Assembly (NCBI GenBank): GCA_029778945.1
Contig: JAKPBN010000382.1
Coordinates: 764 to 64,763, forward strand
Length of the DNA stretch: 64,000 nucleotides
Source of the DNA: Spirochaetota bacterium
Lineage (GTDB): Bacteria > Spirochaetota > Spirochaetia > Treponematales > Rectinemataceae
Direction: 5' to 3'
Shown here: piece by piece, positions 24,473-40,061 of the stretch
Layout of the letters: every line of letters starts with the position of its first letter
Numbering within the stretch: position 1 is the first letter of the stretch
Translations under genes and position numbers: made by a program
Notes under the pieces: model-generated
Database searches by the model: none
What the model saw: only the letters and a program-made list of their open reading frames with translations
What the model was told of the DNA's origin: nothing

Positions 24473-26518
24473 TTAGCGCAAGGGCTCATAGCGGAGGAAT
24501 TTAGCCTGGTAGGCCGCCCTCCCCTTCGTGGCCGACCGGAGCTCCGAGGCCAGGCCGAAAAGGAGGCGCAGGGGGGCCGCCGCCTCGAGGTATTTCTCGC
24601 CCCCCACGTCGTCGACGGACTCTATCCGCCCTCCCCGGGCCCCCAGGACGGCGACGGCCTGGCCCAGGCAGTCCTCGGGACAGCCCAGCTCCACCCGCAT
24701 CCAGGGCTCGAGGACCTGGGTCCCGGCCCTGGCCAGGGCATCCCGGGCGGCCAGGGAGGAGGCTATCTCCAGCACGAGGGCATCCTGGCGCCCTCCGGGC
24801 AGGGAAAAGCCCAGCAGCTTGGCTTCCCAATCCTCCACTGGCCAGCCTCCGGCCGGGCCGGCGGAAAGGCTCGCCTCCACCCCGCGGGTAAAGGCCTCTA
24901 TATAGGAGGCACTGGCCCGGAGGCCTGGCCCCAGGCCCAGGCGGTGGCCCCCGCCCCTAGGAAGGGGAGCCAGGGAGAGGTCGAGGCTGGCCCGAAGCCT
25001 CTCTCCGTTCATGGAGCGATCCAGGTCGCAATGACCATCCGCTGAATGAAGGAGGGTCTCCCGGTAGGAGACCTGGGGCGCCCCGGCCCGGAGCTTGATC
25101 CCCCGCTCGACCCGGAGCCTCTCCAGGGCAACCTCAAGGTGGAGCTCCCCCATGCCGGAGAGTATGAGACGGCCCGTCTCCCCGTCCTCCCGGAGCCTCA
25201 GGGAGGGATCCTCCTCGAGGAGGCTGGCCAGGGCCTCGGCCAGGGCGGCCCCCTCGGCCCGGCCGGGGCTTTCCAGGGCGAGAGAGACCACGGGCTCGTC
25301 AAAGCCCAAGGCCTCGTAGACCAGGAGGTGGCCGGGGCTGGAGAGGCTCGAGCCCGTCGAGCCGGGGTTGCCCTTGTTGGAGGCCGCCCCAAAGGAGAGG
25401 GCCGCTATGTCCCCGGCCCGGATGGACGGAAGGTCCTCCAGGGCCGAGGCCTGGATGGAGAAGATCTTCTGGACCCGCAGGGCCTGGTCCCTTCCGGCGT
25501 CTATCACCCTGTCTCCGGGCGCAAGGCTTCCCGACCAGACCCTCACCCAGGAAAGGCGGCCAAAGGAGGGATCGGCCTGGGTCTTGAAGACAAAGGCCGA
25601 GAAGGCCCCGGCCTCTTCGCAGGCGGCCCGGGCCGGGGCCCCGGTGGCGGGATCCAGGCCCTCGGGGCAGGGCCTGTCCCCGGGACTGGGCAGGTAATCC
25701 ACGATCCCGTCCAGGAGGAGGGCCACCGAGGCATCGGAGAAAGCCGAGCCGCAGAGGAGGGGAACCAGGCGGCCCGAGACCGTCGCCGCCCGCAGGCTCG
25801 CCCGCAGGGCCTCGGCCCCGACCTCCTGGCCTGCGGCGTAGAGGGCCAGGATAGCCTCGTCGGTCTCGGCCACGGCCTCGACCAGGGCCTCCCGGCCGGC
25901 CAGGGCCACAGGAAGGAAGTCCGGAGGAATGGGGAGGGCCCCGCCCCCGGAGGGCCGGGCCTGGAGCTCGACTAGGTCTAGGACGCCCTGGAAGTCCTGG
26001 CCCTCCCCCCAGGGCAGGCAGAGGGGGATGAGGCCGGGGACGAGGGCCTTGAGCTCCCCGGCGGCCTCGAGAAAGGAGGAGCCCCTCCGGTCAAGCTTGT
26101 TGATAAAGGCCAGGCGGGGCAGGTCCCTGCGGGCGGCGGCCCGGAGGACGGCCTCGGTCCGGGATTGGACCCCGGCCACGGCGCAGAGGACAATCACCGC
26201 GGAGTCCAGGACCCGGAGGCTGCGCTCCACCTCGGAGCCAAAGTCGATGTGGCCCGGGGTGTCGATAAGGTTGATCCCCCGGCCCTTCCATTCCAGGCGG
26301 ACGCAGGCGGCCTTTACCGTGATGCCCCGCTCCCGCTCCACGGGCAGGAAGTCCGTGGCGGTGGTCCCGGAGTCGACCGAGCCTGGGGCCCTGAGCCTCC
26401 CCGCCAGGAAGAGGATGCGTTCGGTGAGGCTGGTCTTGCCCGCGTCGATGTGGGCAAAGATGCCCAGGTTGCGGAGGATGCCTGAATCGCTGCCCATGAC
26501 CAGTACATTATAGTGCAT
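24473..26518 (-). CDS. Translational GTPase of the EF-G / ribosomal-protection (TetM/TetO-like) family, ~681 aa, in the position normally held by fusA.
   Basis: AHIDAGKT, DTPGH and NKLD motifs. The G2 region GSVDSGTTATDFLPVERERGITV resembles TetM-type GSVD.GTT.TD more than EF-G GEVHDGAATMDW. ATG chosen at 26516-18 (MHYNVLVMG). Confidence 0.75.
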   Translation of the reverse strand: MHYNVLVMGSDSGILRNLGIFAHIDAGKTSLTERILFLAGRLRAPGSVDSGTTATDFLPVERERGITVKAACVRLEWKGRGINLIDTPGHIDFGSEVERSLRVLDSAVIVLCAVAGVQSRTEAVLRAAARRDLPRLAFINKLDRRGSSFLEAAGELKALVPGLIPLCLPWGEGQDFQGVLDLVELQARPSGGGALPIPPDFLPVALAGREALVEAVAETDEAILALYAAGQEVGAEALRASLRAATVSGRLVPLLCGSAFSDASVALLLDGIVDYLPSPGDRPCPEGLDPATGAPARAACEEAGAFSAFVFKTQADPSFGRLSWVRVWSGSLAPGDRVIDAGRDQALRVQKIFSIQASALEDLPSIRAGDIAALSFGAASNKGNPGSTGSSLSSPGHLLVYEALGFDEPVVSLALESPGRAEGAALAEALASLLEEDPSLRLREDGETGRLILSGMGELHLEVALERLRVERGIKLRAGAPQVSYRETLLHSADGHCDLDRSMNGERLRASLDLSLAPLPRGGGHRLGLGPGLRASASYIEAFTRGVEASLSAGPAGGWPVEDWEAKLLGFSLPGGRQDALVLEIASSLAARDALARAGTQVLEPWMRVELGCPEDCLGQAVAVLGARGGRIESVDDVGGEKYLEAAAPLRLLFGLASELRSATKGRAAYQAKFLRYEPLR

Positions 26519-26583
26519 AGTCGCCCCGGCTTTGATATAGTATCGGGGTGGCGCCCGATGAGGGGCGGGCAAGGAGCGTCAAG

Positions 26584-27180
26584 ATGAAGGAACTGGCCAA
26601 TCTCGGATCCATGCCCCTGGAGGCCCTTAGGGAGCAGGTCCTGGACGACCTTGTCCAGCGCTATTCCCAGGAAGGGGTCACGATGGAGGACTTCGAGCGC
26701 CGGACCGGCCTCGCGACCCGGGCCCTCACCAAGTCCGAGCTCCTGGGGGCCATCGAGGGCCTCCCCGGCGAGGCTCCCGCCTATCCCAGCCCGGCCCCCC
26801 GGGCCTCGGCCACGCCCTCGACCTGGCGCTACAACGACAACCCCAGCCCCCGCCAGTCGGCCATGGCCATCTTTGGCGGCTTTGAGCGCAAGGGCGTCTG
26901 GAAGGCCCCCCGCCGGATGGAGAGCCTCTGCGTCTTTGGCGGAGGGGAGATAGATCTGCGGAGGGTCGCCATTCCCCGGGAGGGCCTCACGATCTCCACC
27001 TTGGCCGTCTTTGGCGGGGTGGATGTGGTCATCCCCCCGGACATGAGGATAGAGGTGGCGGGGATGGGCATCTTCGGGGGCTTTGACCACAAGCAGACCG
27101 ATGCCGACGATTCCGCCCCCCTGGTCCGCATCGAGGGCCTGGCGATCTTTGGGGGCGTAGGGATCAAGATCCGCGACTAG
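26584..27180 (+). CDS. DUF1707-like N-terminal domain plus C-terminal LiaF-like repeated FGG domain protein.
   Basis: SD AAGGAG 7 nt upstream of ATG 26584. C-terminus carries repeated (A/G)IFGG(F/V) motifs (MAIFGGFE, CVFGGGE, LAVFGGVD, MGIFGGFD, LAIFGGVG). Confidence 0.6.
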   Translation: MKELANLGSMPLEALREQVLDDLVQRYSQEGVTMEDFERRTGLATRALTKSELLGAIEGLPGEAPAYPSPAPRASATPSTWRYNDNPSPRQSAMAIFGGFERKGVWKAPRRMESLCVFGGGEIDLRRVAIPREGLTISTLAVFGGVDVVIPPDMRIEVAGMGIFGGFDHKQTDADDSAPLVRIEGLAIFGGVGIKIRD

Positions 27181-27200: not shown

Positions 27201-28016
27201 ATGGACCGGAAGATCGACATACTCGTCCTCGACGACAAGGAGGAGGCCCAACTCCAGGTCCGGGCCGCCCTCGACCTCGCCGGGGGCTACGAGGCGAAGA
27301 TCGACTGGGTGGCCCGGGGCGCCGACCTCGCTGGCCTGGGGGACAAGCGCTACGACCTGGCCTTCGTGGATTGGTTCCTGGACAAAGACAGGGCCTACGG
27401 AGTCGATTTCCTGGACCGCATCATCGCCGACTGGGTCGTGGGCTTTTCCTCGAACATCACCGCCTCGGAGCTCATCGAGAAGGCGGCCAAGACCCGGGGC
27501 TTCCGAGGCACCGCCTCGGTGGCCAAGCTCAAGGACGACAGGCAGAACCCCATGCTCGAGGCTTTTTTCCGGGCCCTCCCCGAGGGCAGGCCCGGCAACA
27601 AGCCCCTCTGGCTCTACCGCCAGTCCGGGGTCCTCCCCTTCCGCCGGGAGGCCGGGGGCCTCTCCCTCGTCCTCGTCACCTCCCGCAAGGACGGGGAATG
27701 GATCCTCCCCAAGGGGGTGGTCGAGCGGGGCGTGAGCCCCGCCGACTCGGCCCTCAAGGAGGCCCGGGAGGAGGCCGGCATCCTGGGGCGGATCGCGGGC
27801 CCCGAACTGGGGCGCTACCGCTATCCAAAATGGGAGGGAATCTGTACGGTGATCCTCTATCCCATGGAGGTCCTCCGGGTCCTGGACTCCTGGGACGAGA
27901 GGCTCCAGCGGAGCCGGGCCTTCCTCCCCCCGGAAGAGGCCCTCAAGGCGATAACGAACCCCGATATCCGAAACCTGGTGGCCCGCTTCCTGGAGGGGGG
28001 CCTAGCCCCAAGCTAG
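27201..28016 (+). CDS. Receiver (REC-like) domain fused to a Nudix hydrolase domain.
   Basis: N-terminus ILVLDDKEEAQ...YDLAFVDWFL is receiver-like. Nudix box PKGVVERGVSPADSALKEAREEAGI. SD AGGAGG upstream. Confidence 0.7.
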   Translation: MDRKIDILVLDDKEEAQLQVRAALDLAGGYEAKIDWVARGADLAGLGDKRYDLAFVDWFLDKDRAYGVDFLDRIIADWVVGFSSNITASELIEKAAKTRGFRGTASVAKLKDDRQNPMLEAFFRALPEGRPGNKPLWLYRQSGVLPFRREAGGLSLVLVTSRKDGEWILPKGVVERGVSPADSALKEAREEAGILGRIAGPELGRYRYPKWEGICTVILYPMEVLRVLDSWDERLQRSRAFLPPEEALKAITNPDIRNLVARFLEGGLAPS

Positions 28017-28031: not shown

Positions 28032-28826
28032 ATGCAGGATTTTTTGGCCGGTGATTCCTATGAGACCGCCGAGGGAAGGCCCCAGGCCCTGTCGGAGACC
28101 CTCCTCCTCCACTCCCGCTGGAGCGTCTATTCCCATTTCTTCGCCACGATCATCCGGAGCCGCGCCCTGGCCCTGAAGGGCCTGTATGGCGACGAGGCCT
28201 GGTCGGACTCCTCGGTGGAGATCACGAACAACCTGGAGCGCTGCGGGGCCCGCTTCCACATCAAGGGGATGGAGGGGGTCAGGGCCGTCCAGGGCCCCCT
28301 CGTCTTTGTGGCCAACCACATGTCGACCCTGGAGACCCTCGTCCTCCCGGGCCTCATCAGGCCCCTCAAGCCCGTGACCTTTGTGGTCAAGGAAAAGCTC
28401 CTCAAGGGCTTCATCTGGGGCCCCATCATGAGGTCGAGGAATCCCATAGCCGTCACCCGCCGGGATCCCCGGGCCGACCTGGAGACGGTGCTGCGGGAGG
28501 GCCAGGAGCGCCTCGCCTCGGGCATCTCCGTGATCATCTTCCCCCAGGGCACCCGGACCGAGGCCTGGAGGCGGGAGGGCTTCAACAGCCTGGGCGTCAA
28601 GCTGGCGGCCAAGGCCGGGGTCCCGGTCATGCCCGTGGCGCTCAAGACTGACTACTGGGGCTCCAGCGGCCTCTTCCGCGGCTTTGGCCCTGTCCATCGG
28701 GAAAGGCCGGTCGAGCTGGAATTCGGGCCTGCCCTGGCTATCAACGGCCGGGGCAAGGCCGAGCACGAGGCCTGCCTGGACTTTATCGAGACCAGGCTCA
28801 AGGCCTGGGGCGGCAAGATGGCCTAG
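28032..28826 (+). CDS. 1-acyl-sn-glycerol-3-phosphate acyltransferase-like (PlsC family).
   Basis: NHMSTLE (HX4D/E-type) and FPQGTRT motifs. Confidence 0.7.
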   Translation: MQDFLAGDSYETAEGRPQALSETLLLHSRWSVYSHFFATIIRSRALALKGLYGDEAWSDSSVEITNNLERCGARFHIKGMEGVRAVQGPLVFVANHMSTLETLVLPGLIRPLKPVTFVVKEKLLKGFIWGPIMRSRNPIAVTRRDPRADLETVLREGQERLASGISVIIFPQGTRTEAWRREGFNSLGVKLAAKAGVPVMPVALKTDYWGSSGLFRGFGPVHRERPVELEFGPALAINGRGKAEHEACLDFIETRLKAWGGKMA

Positions 28827-28881: not shown

Positions 28882-29094
28882 ATGTTGAAAAGTAAGGGTC
28901 TTGAAAGCAAGCCGGATCTGCCCCCTCCCTCGTCGGCCACCCCAGGGGCCTGCGCGTCCTGCCAGCAGTTTGACTATCGGGTCTGCCATAGGGGAAAAAG
29001 CCTGACCGACCCTGCCTCGACCTGCACCGCCTGGGAGGCCAGGAAGGAGAGGGAAGGCATGACAATCTGGGAAATCCTTACCCGGGAAGGCTGA
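28882..29094 (+). CDS. Hypothetical small Cys-containing protein (~70 aa, MLKSKGLESKPD...CASCQQFDYRVCHRG...C). Possibly leaderless.
   Basis: C-terminal part of track ORF 28684-29094 beyond the plsC stop. Unsupported by homology. Confidence 0.25.
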   Translation: MLKSKGLESKPDLPPPSSATPGACASCQQFDYRVCHRGKSLTDPASTCTAWEARKEREGMTIWEILTREG

Positions 29095-29107: not shown

Positions 29108-29728
29108 ATGAGCATCCTTCCTATCCAGGGTCTTGGGGTCGAGGTCTACGGGGAAAACGAGCTCGTGGCCCGGCTCATGACCGGGGAAGCCCACTATCGC
29201 GCCTGCATCTCCATCGGCAACCCCCGCCCCCTGCTGCGGGCCCCCTCCCCGGGCGAGGCCCTCCACCCCCTGATCAAGGGCTCCTTTGACCGGATCCTCC
29301 GCCTCTCCTTCTACGACCTGGAGGAGGTGGTCGAGCTTCCCGACCGGACTAGGCTCTCGCGCATCCCCTCCCACCGGGACGCCCTCAGGGTCCTGCGCTT
29401 CTACGAGGCCACCAAGGGCCAGACCGACGGCTGGACCGTCCACTGCTGGGCCGGCATCTCCCGCTCGACCGCCGTGGCCCTGGCCCTCCTGTATCGCATA
29501 ACCGGCGATGAGGCCGAGGCCGCGCGGCGCCTCGTGGCCATCCGCCCCGAGGCCATGCCCAACCACCGCCTTGTGAGGGCCGTCGACGCCCTTTTGGGCT
29601 CGAACCGGTCAGGCGTCCTCGAGGCCGTCTACCGGGACAGGCAGGACGCCCTGCGGGAGGAGCTGGACCGGGAGCTTGAGGAGCTGGACGAGGCCCCTGA
29701 GGAGCCGTCCGGGGATGGAAGGGCCTAG
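29108..29728 (+). CDS. Protein-tyrosine/dual-specificity phosphatase-like protein with CX5R P-loop (VHCWAGISRS). Paralog of 35844-36443.
   Basis: HCxxGxxRS signature. ~45% identity to the second copy over the full length, and a shared N-terminus (VEVYGE.EL..RL..GEAH...ISIGNPR). Confidence 0.7.
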   Translation: MSILPIQGLGVEVYGENELVARLMTGEAHYRACISIGNPRPLLRAPSPGEALHPLIKGSFDRILRLSFYDLEEVVELPDRTRLSRIPSHRDALRVLRFYEATKGQTDGWTVHCWAGISRSTAVALALLYRITGDEAEAARRLVAIRPEAMPNHRLVRAVDALLGSNRSGVLEAVYRDRQDALREELDRELEELDEAPEEPSGDGRA

Positions 29729-29784
29729 TCCGGGGAGTCGAGCTCATCGAGGCTGGCGTCGATCACCGGCCCGCCCCAAAAGCC

Positions 29785-30369
29785 CTAGGCCGAGGGGCCC
29801 CTGCCCGGATTGGCCAGAACCATGTTGCAGAAGAGGGCCCCCTGCTCGATCGCGTCGTCCAGGGCCCGGTGGGTGTGGGGAAGGTCGTCGAGCCAAGCCG
29901 GGGGCAGGCGGCCCTTGCCGCAGTCCCCGTAGCCCTGGCCCAGGAGCGCCATCGCATAACTTCTCATATCCACCCCGTTGTGCCCAAAGGGCGAATGCCC
30001 CAGGAAGCGGTGGCAGTACCAGTAGACGAAGGTAAAGTCAAAGCCCAGGGGCCAGGCCACGAAGACCGGCCGGCCCGGGAGGCCGGCGAGCCAGGCTTCA
30101 TAGTCGGCCATGGCCTTGAGCGGGGGCCGGGGATCCCGGTGGCACTCGGCCCAGGCCTCAGGCTGGCCCGCCCACCAGGCCAGGGTGTCCGGGTGGCCAG
30201 AAGCCCCGGGCAGGGGCTCGAGGTTGGCCTCGAAGGTGGAGACGAGGATTTTCCCGCCCCCGCTAAGCCCATAGGCCGCCGAGGCCAGGCTGAGCATGGA
30301 GTGAGGCCCGGGGATGGGGCCGTCGGTCTCCACATCGGTGCTCACATAGAGCTCGGCCTCGAGGCTCAT
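29785..30369 (-). CDS. DEDDh-type 3'-5' exonuclease (DnaQ/oligoribonuclease-like).
   Basis: Exo I motif [10 protein letters not shown] and Exo III motif HRALDDA. ATGA overlap with the upstream nitroreductase stop. Confidence 0.65.
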
Positions 30370-30935
30370 GGGAGGAAGAGCTCCTCCAGGGGCTTGCGGG
30401 TCCGGGGGGCCTCCTCCCGGGCCCTAAGCTTTTCCGGCAGGTCCTCGGGCCTACCCAGGCGGCCCACGGCCACCATGGTCACGGCCTCAAAGTCGGGAGG
30501 CAGGCTAAAGAGCTCCTGGGCCTTCTCGGCCTCAAAGCCGGCCATGTTGTGGACATAGAGGCCCATCGAGGTGGCCTGGCAGGTCAGATTGCCCATGGCC
30601 AGGCCCAGGTCGTAGCGGGCCCAAGGGTGAGGGGCCCCGTCCCGCTCCCGGGTCGTCCTGACCACGGTGAGGATGAGGAGGGGGGCCTTGGGCGCCCAGA
30701 GGTCGTTCCCGGGCTTGAGGCAGGAGACGAGGCGGGCGTGGCGCTCGCCCCCGTCCCTCTCGGCCCAGGCAAAACGCCAGGGCTGGCCATTGTTGGCCGA
30801 GGCCGCCCACCGGGCCGCCTCAAAGAGGGAGAGGACGGTTTCCCGGCCCAGGAGGGCCTCGTCAAAGGCCAGGGGGCTCCAGCGCCTCTGGATAAACTCA
30901 TGGACGGGATGGTCAAAGCTGGGTATCGGTTTCAT
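30366..30935 (-). CDS. Nitroreductase family protein.
   Basis: ...[34 protein letters not shown]... matches a nitroreductase fold. Confidence 0.65.
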
Positions 30936-30943
30936 AGGCTTAA

Positions 30944-31432
30944 CTATCGTCCTTCCGGCCCGGCCGGCAAGGCCCAGCTGGGCCAGGGATGCTTGGCTAG
31001 CTGGGAATTGAAATAGCGCCGGTCGTCGGACACCTCCTTGAGGATCCAAGGCGGAAGGTCCACCACGGCGTCCGCCGACTCGAGCTCCAGCTCGGCCAAG
31101 ACAAGGCCCTCGTTGGCCCCGTGGAAGATGTCGACCTCCCAGGTCTGGCCGGCGTAGGGCACGAGGCAGCGGGTCTTGTCCACAAAGGGCCGCTCGCAGA
31201 GGGTGTCGAGGATCTCCCGGGCATCCGCCACGGGGATGGGGTACTCGTATTCCGCCCGGGAGAGGCCGTCGTTGGCGCCCTTGATGGTGATCCGGGCCTC
31301 GTCCCCGATCAGGCGGATCCGCACAACCCGCTCCTTGGCCGAGGAGAGGTAGCCCTGGACTATGGCCTTGCCGGGGCCCTGGGGCCTCCAGTCCGGGATG
31401 ACCAGGAATTTGCGCTCGATCTCAGTGCCCAC
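30944..31432 (-). CDS. CYTH-domain protein (triphosphate tunnel metalloenzyme; CyaB/thiamine-triphosphatase-like).
   Basis: N-terminal EIERKFLV signature and overall CYTH length (162 aa). Confidence 0.7.
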   Translation of the reverse strand: MGTEIERKFLVIPDWRPQGPGKAIVQGYLSSAKERVVRIRLIGDEARITIKGANDGLSRAEYEYPIPVADAREILDTLCERPFVDKTRCLVPYAGQTWEVDIFHGANEGLVLAELELESADAVVDLPPWILKEVSDDRRYFNSQLAKHPWPSWALPAGPEGR

Positions 31433-31453
31433 GGTATGCCTCCAAAGTCGCCA

Positions 31454-32548
31454 TCATACCCCGACCTCCCCCTTCCCGAGGAGGGCCTGTCCAAGGGTCT
31501 CGAGGAGGGGCTCGAGGGCGGCCATGAGGCGGGAGTCCTCACCGTAGACCGAGAGGCGGGCCCCGTTAAGGACCTTGGAGGCCGCGTCCGCCAGGAGGGG
31601 CCGTTGCTCCAGGGGCAGCATCTCCAGGGCCAGGCCGTGCTCGGCCCGCTTGGAGGCAAAGTCCCGCTCGACCTCGAGGCGGCTCTTCTCGGCCTCGAGG
31701 CCCAGCTCCTCCAGGGTAGCCCGGAGGGCCGCGAGGGCCGCCTCGTGCCGGAGGCGCGCCACCGGGGCCTCGGCCTCCAGGGCCTCCCGCTCGGCGGCGA
31801 CCCGGAGCTCGAGCTTGCCCCGCTCGACCTCGGCCTTGGTGCGCTCGGTCTCCAGGGACTCCCGCTCCTTCCTCCTCTGGATCGAGGCCGCCAGGGCGAG
31901 CTTCTCCTCCTCCAGGGCGGCCTTCTGCCGCTCGGTCTCCAGGGCTTCCCGCTGGATGCGCCGCTCGGAGTTGATCACCGCGAGCTTGACCGTCTCCTCC
32001 GCCTGGAGCTCGGCCCGCTCGCTCGTCACCTTGATCTCGTTCCTCGTGCCCGCCTCGAGCTGGAGCCTAAGGCCCGAGTCGACGATGTAGACCTGGGCGA
32101 CCTGGACCACCTCGATGGAGATGCCCCAGCCCTCCCCTCCCTGGCCCACGAGGGCCTCGAGGGCGGCCTTGACGGCCCCGGTCATCGTGGTCTTGCGCTG
32201 CTCGATGCACTCGAGCATGGTCATCCGGGACACGAGGTCCCGCAGCTCCCCCAGGCTGGACTGGGTGAGGAGGGCCGAGATGGCGGAAGCGCCCTCGCCA
32301 CGGGAAAAGTCAAAGAGGGTGGCGGCCACCTCGGGCCTCACGATCCGCCAGATCACGATGCCCTTGAAGCGCAGGGGGATCCCGTCCTTGGTCTCCTGGG
32401 TCATCTCAAAGGCCGACTCAAGCTGGGTGCCCGGGACCTTTACCCAGGCCGTCCCCGGCAGGAGGTGGGCGTTGGCCGCCTCCCCCCGATTCACAAGGTG
32501 CCCTCGGCGGGCTACGACGAGATACTCTCCTGGCTTGGTCCTTGGCAT
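31454..32548 (-). CDS. SPFH (band-7/flotillin-like) domain protein with long Glu/Ala/Leu/Arg-rich coiled-coil tail.
   Basis: ATG 32546-48 with SD AGGAGG. SPFH-like N-domain, then EA-rich heptads. Confidence 0.65.
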   Translation of the reverse strand: MPRTKPGEYLVVARRGHLVNRGEAANAHLLPGTAWVKVPGTQLESAFEMTQETKDGIPLRFKGIVIWRIVRPEVAATLFDFSRGEGASAISALLTQSSLGELRDLVSRMTMLECIEQRKTTMTGAVKAALEALVGQGGEGWGISIEVVQVAQVYIVDSGLRLQLEAGTRNEIKVTSERAELQAEETVKLAVINSERRIQREALETERQKAALEEEKLALAASIQRRKERESLETERTKAEVERGKLELRVAAEREALEAEAPVARLRHEAALAALRATLEELGLEAEKSRLEVERDFASKRAEHGLALEMLPLEQRPLLADAASKVLNGARLSVYGEDSRLMAALEPLLETLGQALLGKGEVGV

Positions 32549-32606
32549 GGTGGCCTCCTGTTGGTCTGGCCCTAGGATGGCCCGAGAAGCACACATAAGT
32601 AAAATC

Positions 32607-32625
32607 GATTGTTTTTATGACAATC
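32607..32625. promoter_or_regulatory. Perfect inverted repeat GATTGT-N7-ACAATC (LysR-type T-N11-A-like box) in the AT-rich divergent intergenic region between the LysR gene and the flotillin-CYTH operon.
   Basis: Palindrome read directly. Position is typical for LysR autoregulation and target control. Confidence 0.5.
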
Positions 32626-32663
32626 ATCATTTATTCTGATGCTACATCAAGGAGGGGGTGACG

Positions 32664-33533
32664 ATGGACCTCTTTGGATTGCGCTGCTTTGTGGAGATCG
32701 TCCGGGCCGGGGGCTTTACCCGGGCGGCCGAGGCCCTGGGCCGGACCCAGCCCGCGGTCAGCGCCCAGGTCAAGCGGCTCGAGGAAAGCCTGGGCGGTCC
32801 CCTCATAGACCGCTCGGCCCCGGGCCTTGTGCTCACCGAACTGGGCAGGCAGCTCCTGCCCCGGGCCGAGGGCCTCCTGGAAGGAATCGACGACCTGGAG
32901 AGGGAAATGCTCGCCGGGGATGGCCAGGCCCGAGGCCGGGTGACTATCGCCACAGGCCTCTCGGTGATCGAGGGCCTCCTGCCCGCCATCCTGGGCAGCT
33001 TCCGGGCCCGCCACCCTTTAGTGCGCATAACCCTCCTCAACCGTCCCGGGGAGGGCATCTACCGGGCCTTGCTGGACGCCCGGGCCGACCTGGGCCTGGG
33101 CTGGCTCCTTGGGCAGAGGCCGCGGATCCAGGCCGAGGCCATAGGGGAAGTCCGCTTCTACCTGGCCAGGAGAAAGACCCGCCAGGCCCGGGGCCAAGGC
33201 CGGCTCGAGGACCTCCTCGCGGGCCCCCTCCTGGCCTTCGAGAAGGGCATCGATCTGCGGAACTATGCCGAGGGAAGGCTCGGCCCCCTCGAGGCTTTTC
33301 TTGAACTGCCCAGCGTCGAGGCCCTCCTCCGCTATGCCGAGAGGGGCTTTGGGACCGCCCTCGTCCCCCTCCTCTCGGGGGTCCGCCAAAGCCCGGCCCT
33401 GGAATGGCTGGACCTTTCGGACACCGTGCCGCCCCTTGCCCTCGAACTCTACCGCCGGGAAGGTGCGCCCGGCTCGGCAGCCCAGGCCCTCCTCGTCGAG
33501 GCGATCCGACAGGGCCGGGACACCGGAGACTAA
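32664..33533 (+). CDS. LysR-family transcriptional regulator.
   Basis: N-terminal HTH (LRCFVEIVRAGGFTRAAEALGRTQPAVSAQVKRLEESLG). SD GGAGGGGG before ATG 32664. Confidence 0.85.
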   Translation: MDLFGLRCFVEIVRAGGFTRAAEALGRTQPAVSAQVKRLEESLGGPLIDRSAPGLVLTELGRQLLPRAEGLLEGIDDLEREMLAGDGQARGRVTIATGLSVIEGLLPAILGSFRARHPLVRITLLNRPGEGIYRALLDARADLGLGWLLGQRPRIQAEAIGEVRFYLARRKTRQARGQGRLEDLLAGPLLAFEKGIDLRNYAEGRLGPLEAFLELPSVEALLRYAERGFGTALVPLLSGVRQSPALEWLDLSDTVPPLALELYRREGAPGSAAQALLVEAIRQGRDTGD

Positions 33534-33550
33534 AGGAGCGTCGATAGGCC

Positions 33551-33578
33551 TTGACCTGCCCCCCACAGGATGTACTAT
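33551..33578 (+). promoter_or_regulatory. Sigma70-like promoter (-35 TTGACC, 16-nt spacer, -10 TACTAT) upstream of the M50 protease gene.
   Basis: Hexamers read directly. An AT-rich leader with AAAGGAA lies before ATG 33626. Confidence 0.45.
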
Positions 33579-33625
33579 GGAAAAGGTCTGGATCATCAAT
33601 AGAATAAAATTCAAAAAGGAACACC

Positions 33626-34981
33626 ATGAAAGCTAAAAAAACGGTGACCGACGCCAACCTGGACCAGATCGTGGATATTGAGAATTTCCTGATCCCCGAG
33701 ATGTCCAAGCGCGAGGCCGCCAAGGGCACGGCCAACTCCCTTGCCATCCTCCTGACCACCATTGTGCTTTTCTTTTCCACCAAGCTCGTCTCCTTCAAGG
33801 TCGCTGACATAGTCATCCTCATCCTCGTGCTGCTCTTTCACGAGACCGGGCATTGGCTGATGATGAAGGCCTTTGGCTATCGAGACGTGAAGATGTTCTT
33901 TATCCCCTTCTTTGGAGCGGCGGTCAGCGGGAAAGGCCGGAAGGAAAGCGCGGTCAAACGCTGCCTAGTCTCCCTCGCAGGACCCTTGCCGGGCATCCTC
34001 CTGGCCCTACTTCTCTACTGGCTTTTTAGCTTGACCAAGGATTTCCTCCTGCTCAAGACGGCAAAGGTCCTCCTGGCCCTGAACCTGTTCAACTTCCTTC
34101 CCCTGATGCCCATGGATGGAGGCAGGTATGTCGATGCCCTCTTCATGGAGCGGCGGGGCTTCCGCCTATTCTTCTCTAGCCTGGGCATCTTGGCCTTCCT
34201 CGCGTTTGGCGCGGTCAACCTAGACATCATCCTCGTCCTCGTGGGTCTCGCAACTCTCATTTCGGCAATTGGCGAATTCCGGCTGGGCGGCCTGACCCGG
34301 CGCCTCGCGGCCGAGGGGATCAGGCCTAGTTCCATCGCTGCCCTCCTGGAGGATCGGCCAAGCCTCCGGAGGACCCTCGTGGGACTCTACTCGACCACTC
34401 CCCGGGCCTTTGAGCCCGAGCCCATTGCCGCTAAAATCCACAATGGTCTTGTGTCGGTGGTGGACAACCTGAGGATTAAACCCGCCAGGGCCGCGGCCAA
34501 AGTAAGTCTCCTTGGCCTCTACCTCATCCTCCTCCTAGGCGCATCGGTCGCTACCTTCATCCTCATCGCCGCGGATCTCCAGGAAACCATGGTTACCCGC
34601 CAGATAGAGGGCCAGGCCGTCAATTTCTCCCAGCGCAGTCTTTTCAGGGAGCTGGCCTCCGAGATCCCCCTGGACGAAAAAGACCTCTACCATGGGAGAG
34701 GCCTGACCTTTTACGATGGGAAGACCGAACTGGTCGCGGAGGAGTTCTGGTACGACCATGGGATACGGGTGGGCACCTGGACGGATTTCAGCCGCCAGGG
34801 GCTGGCTACTCGTATGGAGCATTACTCCCAAGGGAGGCTCACATCCTTGGAGTCCATCGAGGACGGGGTCTGGAAAACCATGGCCGCCGGAGAACTCGGC
34901 TTTGGCCCACGACTAGAAGAGTGGATTCTAAGCCATGCCCGGCCACGGAAATCCCTTTACCAGGAATTCGCACAGAACTAA
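33626..34981 (+). CDS. Membrane zinc metalloprotease of the M50 (site-2 protease) type with C-terminal MORN-like repeat region.
   Basis: HExxH in a hydrophobic segment (LLFHETGHWLMMKAFG), multiple TM helices, and a C-terminal YDHGIRVGTWTDF...G repeat motif. Confidence 0.65.
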   Translation: MKAKKTVTDANLDQIVDIENFLIPEMSKREAAKGTANSLAILLTTIVLFFSTKLVSFKVADIVILILVLLFHETGHWLMMKAFGYRDVKMFFIPFFGAAVSGKGRKESAVKRCLVSLAGPLPGILLALLLYWLFSLTKDFLLLKTAKVLLALNLFNFLPLMPMDGGRYVDALFMERRGFRLFFSSLGILAFLAFGAVNLDIILVLVGLATLISAIGEFRLGGLTRRLAAEGIRPSSIAALLEDRPSLRRTLVGLYSTTPRAFEPEPIAAKIHNGLVSVVDNLRIKPARAAAKVSLLGLYLILLLGASVATFILIAADLQETMVTRQIEGQAVNFSQRSLFRELASEIPLDEKDLYHGRGLTFYDGKTELVAEEFWYDHGIRVGTWTDFSRQGLATRMEHYSQGRLTSLESIEDGVWKTMAAGELGFGPRLEEWILSHARPRKSLYQEFAQN

Positions 34982-34995
34982 GCCCTGGGGCCAGG

Positions 34996-35793
34996 CTAGT
35001 GCCCTTGCCTGCTACAGTTGTCCAGGTAGAAGGCTGCGGCTCCGTCCTCGGGGAGGATCTCTAGGACAAGCTTAAAGAAGTAGCTCGCCCCGCCGAAATC
35101 CTTCTGGTAATACGCGAGCATTCCCTGCTCAAACAGGCTACCAGCTCTCTGCTTGCGCTCGAAAAGCTCGGGAGAGACCCCGTCGAAAATCTCAAAAACG
35201 GAGACCGGGGCTTCCTTGCCTTCTATCTTAACCTTGCCAAGGAAACGGTACTTGTAGTCCGCCGGGGCGGCAAGCGTCTTGAAGGCCTCCTCCCCGAGAA
35301 GGAGGGGGGAAACAAATGACTTGGCGGCTTGCATTAGGCGAAAGGCCAGATCCACCGGAGGCCCGAGGGAAAGGCTGGCCCCAAGGCCGGCTAGGCCCGG
35401 CGGCAGCATGAGGCAGGGGCCGGTGTCGATCCCAAAGCGAGGCTCAAGAGCCTCCTTGCCTTGCGCCTTCCTCTCCTCATTAAGCGCCACCATGGAAGAC
35501 TGGACTTCGATCCCTGCGCCCACGGCGGTGTCCGTGCACTCTGGCCCCTCGAAGATCGCCTTGATGGTCTCCCCGGCCAGGCTCTCGATCCGGCCCCCGG
35601 CTCGAAGTATTGGCGGGCAAGCCCGGGCCAGCCAAGACTCGAGCAAGGCCGCTCGCTCACTGAGCGAGAGGCCCTGGCAGACTCCCATAGAGTCCGTGAG
35701 GGCCAGGAAAAGCACCGCAACCCTTCTCTCGCCCGGCTCGGCCGGGGGCAGGGGCTTTTCTGCATCTTTCAGCGACCGCCTGCTGAATTGCAT
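34996..35793 (-). CDS. Degenerate class-III adenylate/guanylate cyclase-like (CHD) domain protein with C-terminal TPR-like tail.
   Basis: RRVAVLFLALTDSMG, GRIESLAGETIKAIFEG, RFGIDTGPCL and LGKVKIEGKEAPVSVFEI align to CHD core blocks, but a metal-binding Asp is replaced (GE instead of GD). SD GGAGGA upstream of ATG 35793. Confidence 0.5.
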   Translation of the reverse strand: MQFSRRSLKDAEKPLPPAEPGERRVAVLFLALTDSMGVCQGLSLSERAALLESWLARACPPILRAGGRIESLAGETIKAIFEGPECTDTAVGAGIEVQSSMVALNEERKAQGKEALEPRFGIDTGPCLMLPPGLAGLGASLSLGPPVDLAFRLMQAAKSFVSPLLLGEEAFKTLAAPADYKYRFLGKVKIEGKEAPVSVFEIFDGVSPELFERKQRAGSLFEQGMLAYYQKDFGGASYFFKLVLEILPEDGAAAFYLDNCSRQGH

Positions 35794-35843
35794 GAGTCCT
35801 CCAAGCGCCCCATTCTGGGGCCAGGAACCGGGCCTGGGCAAGC

Positions 35844-36443
35844 TTACTCGTCGAACGGCTCGAGCTCCTCGAGGAGATCGTCCGCCGAAAGGTCGAGCTC
35901 GGCCTTCATCTCCTCGATGCGTTCCGCCCGGATGCGGTCATTGACCTCACTGAGGCGGGAGCCCAGGATTTCATCAAAGAGGCCCACCACGAGTTGGAGG
36001 GGCCGGGCTATGGGCCGGATACGCCGGAGCTCCCGGCCGGCCTCCTCCTCGTCCCCATGGATGAGGTAGAGGAGTCCCAGGGCCACCGCAGGGGAACGGG
36101 AGAGGCCGCCCCAGCAATGGACGGTCCAGCCATCGGCGCGGCCCCGGGTCTCCTCGTAGAAGCGCACAACTTTCTCTATATCCTTCCTGAGGGCGATGCG
36201 CCGGGGTCGCATGTGGACCAGCTGGGCCTTGGTGTCCGCGTCAAAAAAGCCGAGACGCAAAACGTCGGGGAAGCTGGCCCTGAAGGCGGGCGGCACAAAG
36301 GTCCCTGGAGGCGTTCGGCCAAGGGGATAGCGTGGATTGCCAATGGAGACGAGGGCCGAGGTGTGGGCCTCCCCCCGGGCCAGGCGCTCCTGGAGCTCGG
36401 TCTCCCCATAGACCTCGACCCGGGGCCGGTCTGGGGCCTTCAT
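35844..36443 (-). CDS. CX5R phosphatase-like protein (VHCWGGLSRS), second paralog. Translationally coupled by an ATGA overlap to the upstream STAS gene.
   Basis: P-loop signature. ATG at 36441-43 overlaps the TGA of the 36440-37000 ORF. Confidence 0.7.
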   Translation of the reverse strand: MKAPDRPRVEVYGETELQERLARGEAHTSALVSIGNPRYPLGRTPPGTFVPPAFRASFPDVLRLGFFDADTKAQLVHMRPRRIALRKDIEKVVRFYEETRGRADGWTVHCWGGLSRSPAVALGLLYLIHGDEEEAGRELRRIRPIARPLQLVVGLFDEILGSRLSEVNDRIRAERIEEMKAELDLSADDLLEELEPFDE

Positions 36444-37000
36444 GCGAGGAAAACCTCCCCCTTCGCGCTTATGGACAAGGCAGTCTTGCACTCGGCGCAG
36501 GTCGCCCGGCCAGGCTTCGCGACCCGCCAGCGCCGATCGCAGATGGGGCAGGCAAAGGCATAGGGAAAGTTGACCGGGCCTGGGATAGGGTCGGGCTCCT
36601 TGAGCGCGGCAATGGCCTGGGCTGGGGTATCGGTGACCTTAAAGAACTGGCTGAAGCCTAGGAGCTGGAATATCTCAAAGACCGGTGGCGGTACGGAGCA
36701 GAGGGCCATGTCCCCGCCTCTCTCCCTCAGGCGCTTATAGATGGCGATGAGGGACCCAAGGCCAGGGGAGCCATCGTACTTCAGGCCGGAGAGATCGAGG
36801 ACGAGGCGGATAAAGCCAACCTCGATCGCCAGCCCGACCTGAACCATGAAGCGCTCGGCGGCAGGGGATGACATAAGGCCCTCTACCCTGAGGAGAAGGC
36901 CTCCCTCGAGTTCCTCGATCCTGCCCAGCCCCACCTGGACCCCGGTCCCGGCAATCGCGTCAAAGCCCGGAACGATGTCATCGTTCCCCATCGCTAGCAT
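36440..37000 (-). CDS. STAS (anti-sigma-factor-antagonist-like) domain fused to C-terminal zinc ribbon, copy 3 (phospho-site region degenerate: DGSPGLG).
   Basis: N-terminus MGNDDIVPGFDA. STAS core, then CPICDRRW...CAEC. Confidence 0.7.
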   Translation of the reverse strand: MLAMGNDDIVPGFDAIAGTGVQVGLGRIEELEGGLLLRVEGLMSSPAAERFMVQVGLAIEVGFIRLVLDLSGLKYDGSPGLGSLIAIYKRLRERGGDMALCSVPPPVFEIFQLLGFSQFFKVTDTPAQAIAALKEPDPIPGPVNFPYAFACPICDRRWRVAKPGRATCAECKTALSISAKGEVFLA

Positions 37001-37021
37001 GGCCCTCGGTTGGGGCAGGCC

Positions 37022-37573
37022 CTAGCCAAGGTGGACCTCTCCGGCCTCGCCGATGATGAGGCGGGTATTGCAGTCCGGGCAGCAGAAGGGCCCCGGGGCC
37101 GAGGCGCTATGGGGGAGGTTGCAGATGGGACAGCTAAAGCGCCGAGGAAATGCGGGTACCTGCTCCTCGGCCCGGACCCTGAGAAAATGGGCCTTGGCGT
37201 CCTCGAGGGAATCCACAAAGGCAAAGAACTGCCCGAAGCCCATCATCTCCACGGTCGCCAGGGGCTTGGGATGGCAATTGAGGATCACCATGTCCCCGGA
37301 GAGGGGCCTCACCTTCTTGAGTATGGCCGAGAGGCTTCCTATGCCGGTGCTGCTGATGTATTCCAAGCCGGGGCACTCGAGGACAACCCGGCGAAAGCCC
37401 GCATCGATGGCCAGGATGACCTTGCGCAGGAAGGCAGGAGAGGTCTGGGTATCAAGATAGCCCTTGAGGCCTATGACGAGGCCAGCCTCCAGCCCCTCAA
37501 GGGACCGCAGGCTGAGCTCGATCCCAAAGCAAACCTCGTCGTCAAAGCCGGGAACCAGGTCATTATTATTCAT
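37022..37573 (-). CDS. STAS domain plus C-terminal zinc ribbon, copy 2 (ISSTGIG phospho-site-like motif).
   Basis: ATG 37571-73 (MNNNDLVPGFDD) with GGAG SD. C-terminus CPICN...CCPDC. Confidence 0.7.
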   Translation of the reverse strand: MNNNDLVPGFDDEVCFGIELSLRSLEGLEAGLVIGLKGYLDTQTSPAFLRKVILAIDAGFRRVVLECPGLEYISSTGIGSLSAILKKVRPLSGDMVILNCHPKPLATVEMMGFGQFFAFVDSLEDAKAHFLRVRAEEQVPAFPRRFSCPICNLPHSASAPGPFCCPDCNTRLIIGEAGEVHLG

Positions 37574-37598
37574 AGTTGCCCCTTTTAATCTCCGTATC

Positions 37599-38150
37599 TC
37601 ATTGGACAAAGACCTCGCCCTTTTCCGTGACCAGGAAGGAGGTCCTGCACTTTGTGCACCGGTAGAGGCCTGGGGATCTCACAAGGAGAGGGTGGGCGCA
37701 CAGGGGGCAGGGGAAATGCTTAGGGAAGGCCTGGGCGTCGCCGGAGGCTCCAGGGGACATAAAATGGTCCCGGGCCTCCGCCAGAGTAGCGGCAAAGTTA
37801 AAGTACTGGCTAAAGCCGATGAGGTCCAGGGTGGCCTTGGCCTTTGGGGCGCAGTCCAGAATGACAAGGTCGCCACCCAGGGGCTTGAGCCGCTTGCTCA
37901 GGGCGGTGAGGCAGCCGATCCCAGAGCTGGAGACAAAGCCCAGGCCGGCGGCGCCGAGGATGAGATTCCGGTAGCCGCCCTCGATGGCCTTCATGGCCCG
38001 GCCTTGGAGCGAAGCCGAGGTGTGGGCGTCCAAGTCGCCCACAAGCTCGATGAGGAGGCATCCCTCCAGGCCCGCGACAAGCTCGAGCCTCAGGGAAAGG
38101 CCGTCCCGCAGCTCGTCGTCAAAACCGGGCACAATGTCGTTGTTCGCCAT
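37599..38150 (-). CDS. STAS domain plus C-terminal zinc ribbon, copy 1 (VSSSGIG motif).
   Basis: ATG 38148-50 (MANNDIVPGFDD). C-terminus CPLCAH...CTKC. Confidence 0.7.
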   Translation of the reverse strand: MANNDIVPGFDDELRDGLSLRLELVAGLEGCLLIELVGDLDAHTSASLQGRAMKAIEGGYRNLILGAAGLGFVSSSGIGCLTALSKRLKPLGGDLVILDCAPKAKATLDLIGFSQYFNFAATLAEARDHFMSPGASGDAQAFPKHFPCPLCAHPLLVRSPGLYRCTKCRTSFLVTEKGEVFVQ

Positions 38151-38342
38151 GGCAATCCTTCCTTGCGTCCCGGGACCAGTCATAAAGCCCAAGCCTGGGC
38201 TCGCTCCGAAAGAAAGGATAGTGCAGGATCGTTGAATCGGCCATAGCAATTGAGAACCGGGCAGCAGGGAAGAGTAAGCCGCTTCCGAGCCGTCGTTGAA
38301 GCGAAAGTCCCGAAAATCCCAGAGGGGCAGGAGGGTCGGGAA

Positions 38343-40013
38343 CTAGTCCATTCTTTTAGGGAAACCCAGGGTCGCCATCGTTCCCGGCGCGGACCCAAAA
38401 GCGAGGCGGCCCCGGGCGCCGGAAAGAATCGTCTGTACCAGGGAAAGGCCCGAGAAGTCACCGGGAGGCTCATGTCCTGGGCCGTAGGGTCCAGGCAGGG
38501 CTCCGGGGGCTATCCCCGGGCCATCATCAGCTACCACGAGCTCGAGGTCGCCCTCGACCTCCCTGAGGGACACCCTTATCTCCCCGGCCCTGCCCTCGGG
38601 ATAGGCATGGCGGGCGCTATTGGAGACAAGTTCGGTCAGGGCGAACAAGAGGATCTGCTCGTACCAAGGATCGAAATCGCCCTGCAGCGTGGCGGCATAG
38701 TCGAGCCTGGCCTCGCTGTTCCAGATGGACAGGACTTCCCGAGCCAGGGCCCCCATCCTTGCCCCAAGGTCGGGGCTGGCCCAGGGGTGGAGCAGCCTAT
38801 CCATCAGGCATATCCCGGCCTCAAGAAAGGCGGTCTGCCTGCAGTGGGCGGTCCGCACCGCATCCCGGGCCTTCTCGGAGTCCAGGCCGGCCAGGGCGGA
38901 TGCGCAGAGCCGCTTGAGGAGGGCCTGGTCGGCGACGAGGGCCTCCCTGTACTTGACCAAGTCGGCTAGGCCGGCCTGGTTCATCCCGAAGCGGTTGGGC
39001 CAGTCCACATAGGCTTTGAGGATCTCTTCTGTAGAGGGAGGGAATACCATCCCGACCCCGGAGCGAGTGAGGGTCTCGACCAGCTTGGCTCTCTGTCCCT
39101 CCTCCCCACGCAGAGCCAGGACAAGACTATCCAGGCCCTGGCCCTCGATTGGGGGGATAGGCCCATACGACGGGGCATCCCAGGTCCAGGAGGACACTGC
39201 CCACGGGAAGACTACCCGTACCGAGCCATCCTCACCGGCTTCAAGCCGCGCGCCAAAGCCCTCCGCAAGGACGGCCGCCACCGAGCCCTTCCTTAGGGCG
39301 GCCGGGCACGGGGCACCAAGCCGGAGTTCCCCTCCTCCAGGTGTCCTTAGCACGATGAGGGGGATGGTCTTTTCCGGAGGGGAGCATTGTAGGATCTCCG
39401 CCAGGAGGGGGCCAAAGAGAAGGCATAGCTGTCTTGTGGCCGAAGGCCCTAGGGCAAGGTCCCCGAGCTCATACCTGATGGGCCTCTCTCTGCCTTCAAG
39501 GAAACCGGTCACGCTGGCTTCCACGGATTCCAGGAGATCCTGGAGCCTTATTGGGCGCCCGCCGAAGAGGGAGCCGAAGGAGTGGCGCTCCGCCTCCACC
39601 ATACCCATCAACGACGCCAGGAAGGGCAGGAGGGAGGACAGCTCGGGCTCAAGGCGCGTACTTGAGCCCTGGAGGGACAGGATCGACTGCCTAAGGGCAA
39701 TCTGGTTCTTAGCCCGGTGGCCCAGCTCGCGGGTGAGCATGTGCCTCTCCCGGATTCGTTCCTCATCAAAGCTGAAGGCTCCCTGCCTCCGGGCCAGAAG
39801 GAAGACTTGGCAGATGGTGAGATCCAGAACCTGACCCTCCTGAAGGGCAAGCTCGAGATCGACAAGGGCGAGGCCCTCCCGTCCAAGGGCTTCCCGGGCC
39901 GAACCTACAGCCACGAGCTCGAGGCCAGCCCCCTCAAGCAGGTCCCTGAGCCAGATCCGGTCTTTCTGCTCGGGCAAGAAGAGAAAAGCCTTGAGACCCT
40001 CGTTTTTTTCCAT
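38343..40013 (-). CDS. Hybrid signal-transduction histidine kinase (REC-like N-domain, HisKA_2-type H-box ELGHRAKNQ, C-terminal HATPase_c with N and G boxes).
   Basis: Motifs HMLTRELGHRAKNQIALRQ and ELVSNSARHA...DDGPGI...GLSLVQ. The first gene of the minus-strand operon ahead of the STAS triplet. Confidence 0.7.
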   Translation of the reverse strand: MEKNEGLKAFLFLPEQKDRIWLRDLLEGAGLELVAVGSAREALGREGLALVDLELALQEGQVLDLTICQVFLLARRQGAFSFDEERIRERHMLTRELGHRAKNQIALRQSILSLQGSSTRLEPELSSLLPFLASLMGMVEAERHSFGSLFGGRPIRLQDLLESVEASVTGFLEGRERPIRYELGDLALGPSATRQLCLLFGPLLAEILQCSPPEKTIPLIVLRTPGGGELRLGAPCPAALRKGSVAAVLAEGFGARLEAGEDGSVRVVFPWAVSSWTWDAPSYGPIPPIEGQGLDSLVLALRGEEGQRAKLVETLTRSGVGMVFPPSTEEILKAYVDWPNRFGMNQAGLADLVKYREALVADQALLKRLCASALAGLDSEKARDAVRTAHCRQTAFLEAGICLMDRLLHPWASPDLGARMGALAREVLSIWNSEARLDYAATLQGDFDPWYEQILLFALTELVSNSARHAYPEGRAGEIRVSLREVEGDLELVVADDGPGIAPGALPGPYGPGHEPPGDFSGLSLVQTILSGARGRLAFGSAPGTMATLGFPKRMD

Positions 40014-40061
40014 GCCCGCAAGTCTAGGCCTTGGCCCCGCCGGCCGCAAGGCTAATCTGCC

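Follow-up and report, generated by a model that had tools for sequence, protein, structure and literature searches.

The characterised phosphatases that reset switches of the STAS anti-sigma-antagonist type are all metal-dependent PP2C enzymes, and a review of STAS domains mentions only serine/threonine phosphatases of this PP2C type, and neither zinc nor tyrosine (PMC8256260). [quoted passage not shown] COG5350, a group of bacterial phosphatases, bears only the label "predicted protein tyrosine phosphatase" in a published listing (PMC2887360). Literature searches on DSPs with STAS domains or partner switching, on COG5350 and on spirochaete partner switching returned nothing describing the phosphatase family discussed here.

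We analysed a stretch of 64,000 nucleotides from a Spirochaetota contig (hereafter the window), which encodes two paralogous phosphatases, PTP1 on the minus strand and PTP2 on the plus strand (Table 1). What would be new, at the level of their family, is a proposed cysteine phosphatase in the slot that PP2C enzymes occupy in STAS switches. PTP2 itself represents a more modest result, an ordinary-looking paralog of considerable age whose conserved partner is another protein.

Table 1. Features of the two phosphatase loci, with positions in the window
Feature	Position	Strand	Remarks
DUF1707 (SHOCT-like) + LiaF_C-like protein, soluble	26548..27180	+	sub-threshold Pfam matches; likely start ATG 26584
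Nudix hydrolase with weak receiver-like N-terminus	27201..28016	+	271 aa; Pfam NUDIX E 3.9e-10; Response_reg E 0.068
PlsC-type acyltransferase	28032..28826	+	264 aa; Pfam Acyltransferase E 5e-16
Small 4-Cys ORF	28882..29094	+	70 aa; CxxC-x7-C-x13-C; conserved C-terminus ...TIWEILTREG before the stop
PTP2, DSP-fold cysteine phosphatase	29108..29728	+	206 aa; ATG start
Asp70 codon of PTP2	29315-29317	+	invariant residue
P-loop HCWAGISRS of PTP2	29441-29467	+	by translation
Cys113 codon of PTP2	29444-29446	+	
Nucleotide-cyclase-like gene	34996..35841	-	last of operon, immediately downstream of PTP1; PADLOC PycC
PTP1, paralogous phosphatase	35844..36443	-	199 aa, from Met17 of the ORF reaching 36491
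Three tandem STAS genes with C-terminal CxxC...CxxC Zn ribbon (STAS-ZnR)	36440..38249	-	Pfam STAS E 1e-15 to 1e-16
Individual STAS-ZnR genes	36440-37000, 37022-37609, 37599-38249	-	STAS and ZnR profiles
GHKL kinase	38343..40049	-	first gene of operon; HATPase_c/HATPase_c_2; HisKA_2/HWE-like H-box (HRAKN)

PTP2 has an intact CX5R active site within the HCX5R(S/T) P-loop of the cysteine-based PTP superfamily, and D70, H112, C113, G116, R119 and S120 are invariant across 36 relatives, D70 also in distant ones. An AF2 model built on these 36 relatives (mean pLDDT 92) is a single compact alpha/beta domain of the DSP kind, in which the catalytic cysteine ends the central strand and is followed by the P-loop and a helix. 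Its first half consists of strand 11-15, helix 16-24, strand 32-37, helix 54-59 and strand 62-67; then come helix 89-102, strand 109-113 ending in His-Cys, the P-loop, helices 119-132, 135-145 and 153-163, and a long helix 167-194 before an acidic C-terminal tail (...RELEELDEAPEE...). The model aligns over 130–145 residues with DSP catalytic domains of 142–167 residues, with protein DSPs as its best structural matches, while PDB chain sequences match residues ∼80–157 only. D70 follows strand 62-67 and lies 43 residues before the cysteine owing to an insert, a position that would correspond topologically to the DSP general acid, as in VHR and the MKPs. The curated Pfam model DSPc (PF00782) scores 24.5 bits for PTP2 and 19.3 bits for PTP1, both below its gathering score of 33.5, so that DSP membership is based on fold and motif. 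NCBIfam models did not match the window phosphatases, and neither Pfam nor NCBIfam detected a PP2C/SpoIIE domain in PTP2. Judging from the model, PTP2 is most likely a cysteine-based phosphatase of the VH1-like dual-specificity fold, predicted to be catalytically competent and cytoplasmic, and it is under purifying selection (dN/dS 0.29 against the related locus L084). In established phosphatases of lipids and inositols, PTEN and PTPMT1 among them, variable P-loop positions carry Lys or Arg. The X5 segment of PTP2 is WAGIS and the family consensus W-x-G-I-S, with neither Lys nor Arg at the positions that vary across the family (W, A/G/Q, G, I/V/L, S). A PTPMT1- or PTEN-like lipid phosphatase, as the adjacent PlsC gene might suggest, was rejected because WAGIS is not basic and PlsC is missing between the LiaF-like gene and the phosphatase in L085/L177 and L176.

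The initial annotation had set a distinctive N-terminal module apart from the phosphatase loop as a possible recognition domain for STAS-like substrates, and this did not hold. Residues 11–67 supply the first three strands and the accompanying helices of the single DSP fold; the region is common to COG5350-like phosphatases of Alphaproteobacteria, including the invariant V13, L64 and D70; and a profile search saw no protein with this half alone joined to other domains.

The two copies are divergent paralogs, with 95 of 193 residues identical (49%, slightly above the ∼45% first estimated; E 7e-53) in a BLASTP comparison of PTP2 with the minus-strand ORF 35844..36491. Both contain the motifs VEVYGE, GEAH, (I/V)SIGNPR and VHCW(A/G)G(I/L)SRS, and they face opposite ways with 6.1 kb between them (29728 to 35844), as had been described. 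The earlier view of them as old duplicates is likewise borne out: PTP1 and PTP2 fall in separate clades of a neighbour-joining (NJ) tree without support values, each clade with orthologs in other Spirochaetota MAGs. PTP1 shares 66–69% identity with the genes of L001–L003 from such MAGs and PTP2 shares 83, 65 and 62% with those of L084, L006 and L085, while identity across the copy-1 and copy-2 clades is 46–50%, a pattern that suffices to indicate an ancient duplication even without tree support values. A recent or IS-mediated duplication was rejected in view of the 49% identity and of the separate clades of orthologs. The tree contains a third clade marked by an upstream metallophosphoesterase gene, and two or three paralogs occur per contig or MAG in L081, L083, L091 and MAG CALMRC (L002 and L007).

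The family is small, uncharacterised and mostly spirochaetal. Only about 38 close homologs were found among 5.8 billion clustered proteins, and a family profile run against 1.84 billion representatives gave 91 matches below 1e-30 and 4461 below 1e-3. Among species-representative genomes, the close family is confined to Spirochaetota MAGs (L001–L007, L009), with no cultured host seen, and the distant matches are mostly from Alphaproteobacteria. Several close relatives are named 'tyrosine phosphatase family protein' or 'predicted protein tyrosine phosphatase' by JGI, and NCBI sequences with the former name match PTP2 at E 1e-6 to 1e-4.

PTP2 ends a tightly spaced plus-strand unit of five genes (gaps of 20, 15, 55 and 13 nt from the LiaF-like gene to PTP2). 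This unit, proposed by the initial annotation, is real, and its five-gene form is conserved only in the lineage of the window and L084, whose contig carries all five genes in unchanged order. Between the two, PTP2 and the 4-Cys ORF are 83 and 84% identical and the other genes 94–97%, with dN/dS values of 0.29 for PTP2, 0.32 for the 4-Cys ORF and 0.08–0.12 for their operon neighbours; these values mark PTP2 and the 4-Cys ORF as genuine genes whose evolution is quicker than that of the other operon members. The stop codon of the 4-Cys ORF is conserved in L084 and L002, and homologs lie divergently beside copy-1-clade phosphatases in L002 (43%) and L083 (41%). Only one called homolog of this ORF was found among 5.8 billion proteins, the other copies having been located by tblastn on fetched loci. 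The second gene, previously read as a receiver-Nudix fusion, has a clear Nudix domain and a weak receiver part, and it occurs in this operon in the window and L084 only. PlsC follows the LiaF-like gene in L084, L006 and L175 as well. The Nudix gene and the 4-Cys ORF are thus lineage-specific additions, and PlsC is older, though not universal. A scan of 26–31 kb for promoters and terminators was uninformative, and Rfam returned only two distant tRNAs.

The LiaF-like protein is the constant partner and most conserved neighbour of the copy-2 clade, often together with a sensor kinase. Its gene adjoins or lies near copy-2-clade genes in L084, L006, L085/L177, L178, L176 and L175. Deeper in this clade the gene order differs from the five-gene form. 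In L177, L178 and L176, a divergent EF-G paralog is followed by a REC-GAF/PAS-HisKA_2-HATPase kinase, the DUF1707/LiaF-like gene and the phosphatase, and L085, L176 and L177 have neither PlsC nor Nudix between the LiaF-like gene and the phosphatase. The order in L006 is LiaF-like gene, PlsC and phosphatase, with a tandem-STAS gene convergent downstream, while L175 starts with kinase, LiaF-like gene and PlsC; next come a tandem-STAS gene, Band_7 and LysR, followed by a truncated metallophosphoesterase and then the phosphatase.

The PTP1 operon runs from the kinase through three STAS-ZnR genes to PTP1 and the cyclase-like gene. The PTP1 start codon overlaps the stop codon of STAS1 (ATGA), and PTP1 is translationally coupled to this last of the three STAS-ZnR genes. 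In the identical contig L170, gene calling gives 183 aa for each of the three. By gene arrangement, PTP1 is the putative operon-encoded partner of the three STAS-ZnR proteins. The cyclase-like gene matches the Pycsar-type cyclase model PycC of PADLOC (42.7 bits, E 1.1e-11) and, besides one spurious match, no Pfam family at E ≤ 0.01. PADLOC gave no match for the phosphatases or for the STAS, kinase, LiaF-like, Nudix, PlsC or Band_7 proteins; an anti-phage defence system was rejected, as the cyclase-like gene was the only one matched.

At the level of the family, the proposed link to STAS proteins proved stronger than the initial annotation could know, and it is not the logic of PTP2's own operon, which lacks STAS and kinase genes and lies 6.7 kb from the nearest STAS gene. 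At least 10 of the 151 family members scoring at least 100 bits, from several clades, are fused to STAS or STAS-ZnR. Fusions account for many of the long members. The architectures are STAS-ZnR-phosphatase (P0067, P0076, P0081, P0090, P0091, P0097) and STAS-phosphatase (P0066, P0096, P0099, P0105), besides ZnR-phosphatase (P0109, P0190) and a degenerate STAS-phosphatase-ZnR (P0080). Fusions occupy at least three places in the NJ tree, which has no support values; P0090 is a single ORF in two independent assemblies, and the contigs of the fused proteins measure 1.3–1.8 kb, too short for a neighbourhood. The Zn ribbon FPxxxxCPxC...P....C..C is common to the fusions and the C-termini of the three window STAS proteins. 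At the canonical phosphoserine column, which we take to be that of SpoIIAA Ser58 and RsbV Ser56 in the Bacillus reference sequences, all three window STAS-ZnR proteins and six of the ten fusions have Ser, the remaining four having it at position -1.

Co-occurrence with STAS-ZnR genes, which the annotation had proposed to check, is seen in fusions, and STAS genes lie 0.1–4.2 kb from standalone family members (L004, L006, L007, L083, L084, L175). Standalone STAS-ZnR proteins occur widely in Spirochaetia and Treponema, but at three independent loci encoding them (L165, L167, L169) there was no such phosphatase within 7 kb, which makes the link one-sided. STAS or ZnR profile matches were found in 0 of 144 distant, mostly alphaproteobacterial loci, a weak control since the profiles were trained on spirochaetes. 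Of 118 standalone members, 71 carry an acidic LLEELP tail at the C-terminus, against 0 of 11 STAS/ZnR-fused ones (Fisher p 8.6e-5, uncorrected for phylogeny), a distribution consistent with a tail needed only for partner binding in trans. Other recurrent neighbours are an IU-nucleoside hydrolase, an ADP-ribosylglycohydrolase, Nudix and CYTH genes, and a metallophosphoesterase that adjoins family members in five loci and is fused to one in P0083.

The fold, catalytic motifs, paralogy, fusions and neighbourhoods observed here suggest a substrate, a direction of regulation and roles for single residues as follows. A GHKL/HisKA_2 kinase would phosphorylate a small adaptor. For most of the family this would be a STAS-ZnR protein, modified on its conserved loop serine; for the copy-2 clade, the DUF1707/LiaF-like protein may take its place. 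The phosphatase would then reset the adaptor by the standard thiophosphate mechanism, with Cys113 attacking the phosphoester, Arg119 binding the phosphate and Asp70 acting as general acid, so that the family enzyme would fill the role of the PP2C phosphatases RsbU and SpoIIE in known STAS systems. A point against this reading is that DSP enzymes are typically less efficient on phosphoserine than on phosphotyrosine. Since relatives of PTP2 are repeatedly fused to STAS domains, removal of phosphate from STAS domains is the favoured function of the family; for PTP2, the target is most likely the LiaF-like protein or else, in trans, the STAS-ZnR pool that PTP1 would serve. That the family as a whole consists of cysteine-based phosphatases resetting a phospho-adaptor in partner-switching-type kinase/adaptor/phosphatase cassettes, in the place of PP2C, is in our judgement plausible, if short of probable.

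The fusions prove functional coupling and not that STAS is the substrate, and the STAS domain could instead be regulatory. It would then, with or without its Zn ribbon, act as a sensor module gating the phosphatase, whose substrate would be another phosphoprotein, such as the LiaF-like protein, the sensor kinase or a receiver domain. We regard this as unlikely, although STAS-ZnR lies N-terminal to the catalytic domain in fusions, the usual order of sensor and enzyme, although L176 and L177 of the copy-2 clade keep kinase, LiaF-like gene and phosphatase without STAS, and although four of ten fused STAS domains lack the canonical-column serine. The canonical serine is nonetheless kept in most STAS domains, the window operon includes a GHKL kinase, and enzyme and substrate in one chain have a precedent in multidomain partner-switch proteins, among them Rv1364c of M. 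tuberculosis, where an enzyme is fused to its substrate.

Rather improbable, in our view, is a substrate other than protein, be it a nucleotide, an ADP-ribose derivative, a cyclic-nucleotide intermediate or, with the adjacent PlsC in mind, a phospholipid. Such a substrate would parallel PTPMT1, RNA 5'-phosphatases and glucan phosphatases, which have the same fold. A metallophosphoesterase, a nucleoside hydrolase, ADP-ribosyl-GH, Nudix and CYTH recur as neighbours and, together with the Metallophos fusion in P0083, hint at small molecules, but their presence varies between clades (L085, L176 and L177 have neither PlsC nor Nudix between the LiaF-like gene and the phosphatase), and the repeated STAS fusions would be left unexplained. 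Basic residues of the kind found in lipid and inositol phosphatases are also absent from the P-loop of PTP2, and this neutral loop and the protein DSPs as structural neighbours favour a phosphoprotein. It is quite improbable that PTP2 is a redundant or decaying duplicate without a distinct role. Against 0.08–0.12 for its operon neighbours, its dN/dS is about threefold higher, and in the close relative L084 only decayed fragments of PTP1 are left, so family copies can be dispensable; however, all catalytic and invariant residues of PTP2 are intact, its dN/dS is well below 1, and orthologs of its clade persist to about 55% identity with the linkage to the LiaF-like gene kept.

Resetting of a phospho-adaptor, the reading we prefer, can be extended only tentatively. 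The family may represent an unrecognised class of partner-switching phosphatases that replaces PP2C on STAS-Zn-ribbon adaptors, with the LEEL tail docking in trans and being dispensable when the two are fused, and the cassette might control a nucleotide-cyclase-like output and not a sigma factor. As a specialised paralog, PTP2 would apply this chemistry to a soluble LiaF-like adaptor that serves a HisKA_2 sensor kinase. If true, a cysteine-based, redox-sensitive DSP would add thiol oxidation as a new input to partner switching, the function of an unannotated protein family would be explained, and the widespread, unstudied spirochaetal STAS-Zn-ribbon proteins would gain a testable role. The window is a compact and complete test set for this, with a kinase, three STAS-ZnR proteins, two phosphatases, a LiaF-like protein and a cyclase-like output.

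Compared with VH1-like DSPs (atypical DUSPs and MKP catalytic domains such as DUSP10/MKP-5, DUSP28, Slingshot-2 and STYX), PTP2 shows only 14–23% identity, and its family is distinguished by inserts at about residues 38–53 and 72–85 and by a long C-terminal helix and a LEEL tail of acidic character. Its members are bacterial and are found next to STAS, LiaF-like and kinase genes, whereas VH1-like DSPs have MAPK-binding domains. The uncharacterised COG5350-type phosphatases (∼170 aa, mostly from Alphaproteobacteria) are homologous over the whole PTP2 catalytic domain, including its N-terminal half, and share V13, L64, D70, HCWAGISRSTA and P147-A149-P151. Identity is only 24–30%, and the alphaproteobacterial proteins lack the two inserts, the C-terminal helix and the tail. 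By this sequence comparison, the PTP2 family is a divergent branch of the COG5350-type bacterial phosphatases.

As for regulatory systems, CapK/CapS shows that coupling STAS to an output domain at the C-terminus, controlled by a GHKL kinase, is a general design, with a wHTH as output domain in CapS and a Zn ribbon in the window STAS proteins. Linkage of STAS, a phosphorylatable serine and a GHKL kinase is seen in the PTP1 operon and the family fusions, and not in the PTP2 operon. Unlike in PP2C systems, no sigma or anti-sigma factor was identified here, and the STAS proteins end in a Zn ribbon. The operon logic of kinase, STAS and phosphatase is nevertheless common to PP2C partner-switching systems and the copy-1 operon, and the proposed role resembles that of the PP2C (PPM) phosphatases RsbU, RsbP and SpoIIE, namely resetting a phosphoserine STAS protein phosphorylated by a GHKL kinase. 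PP2C enzymes use a binuclear metal centre, whereas the PTP2 family would proceed through a cysteine thiophosphate intermediate in an unrelated fold, and it would therefore be a functional analogue of the PP2C partner-switching phosphatases and not a homolog.

The acidic LLEELP-type tail of the 206-aa cysteine phosphatase PTP2 was present in most standalone members of its family and in none of the 11 members fused to STAS or Zn-ribbon (ZnR) domains. The tail, as seen in the family alignment (A1), may act as a peptide for docking in trans.

A conserved ORF for a small four-Cys protein (CxxC-x7-C-x13-C, with C-terminus TxWE(I/V)(I/L)xREG) adjoined phosphatase genes from two separate clades; it is almost never called in public gene sets, with one homolog among 5.8 billion proteins. 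Directly upstream of the phosphatase we also found a gene for a ~256-aa metallophosphoesterase, overlapping the phosphatase gene in several loci across clades. The metallophosphoesterase gene carried an internal deletion in locus L175, and protein P0083 was a fusion of the two enzymes. Another domain combination was a metagenomic phosphatase-phosphatase tandem (P0086, 339 aa), with two family domains in one protein. Genes for cNMP-binding and Apyc1-like MBL proteins occurred near the phosphatases of locus L083.

At the loci of the PTP2 clade with upstream sequence (the window, its close relative L084, L006, L085/L177, and L176), an EF-G-like paralog divergently adjoined the LiaF-like gene or its preceding sensor kinase. 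On the other side of PTP2, the 194-aa ORF had no match in Pfam or NCBIfam; in L006, a tandem-STAS gene occupied the equivalent position.

Table. Coordinates of the features discussed (window positions unless a locus is named).
Feature	Position	Strand	Remarks
EF-G-like GTPase paralog	24473-26572	-	Divergent from LiaF-like gene; at edge of ribosomal-protein/EF-Tu cluster
Four-Cys ORF	28882-29094	+
Four-Cys ORF	L084 4866-5075
Four-Cys ORF	L002 2087-2233	-
Four-Cys ORF	L083 14712-14873	-
Acidic tail of PTP2	~29660-29710		Residues ~185-200; conserved C-terminus
194-aa ORF	29785-30369	-	Convergent with PTP2; DEDDh-exonuclease-like motifs, spotted by eye
PycC-like gene	34996-35841	-	Directly after PTP1; scores 42.7 bits (E 1.1e-11) with the PycC (Pycsar-cyclase) models of PADLOC
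Putative His or Ser kinase	38343-40049	-	HisKA_2/HWE-type H-box, HRAKN, residues ~108-127
ADP-ribosylglycohydrolase, NrtR-like Nudix regulator	40122-40940, 40951-41637	+, +	Divergent from kinase-STAS-PTP1 operon
Copy-1 phosphatase remnant	L084 7169-8028	-	Frameshifted fragments, directly 3' of one STAS-ZnR gene
Metallophosphoesterase + phosphatase	L083 7234-8600; L007 9216-10555; L081 7231-8582; L091 3362-4773; L175 4818-5863

The cassette with the paralogous copy-1 phosphatase, PTP1, is evolutionarily labile. In L084, where neighbour genes were 89-97% identical to those of the window, the phosphatase persisted as a remnant and the window's Band_7/LysR/M50/cyclase-like block was not present. 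The ADP-ribosylglycohydrolase and NrtR-like regulator pair, inferred for the window from the identical contig L170 and agreeing ORF lengths, also lay near the STAS gene in L084.

In the kinase heading the copy-1 operon, about 340 residues separated the H-box from the HATPase_c domain, which also matched RsbW-like HATPase_c_2. The gene following PTP1 matched no family in Pfam; given its match to Pycsar-cyclase models, the copy-1 operon may end in a nucleotide-cyclase-like output.
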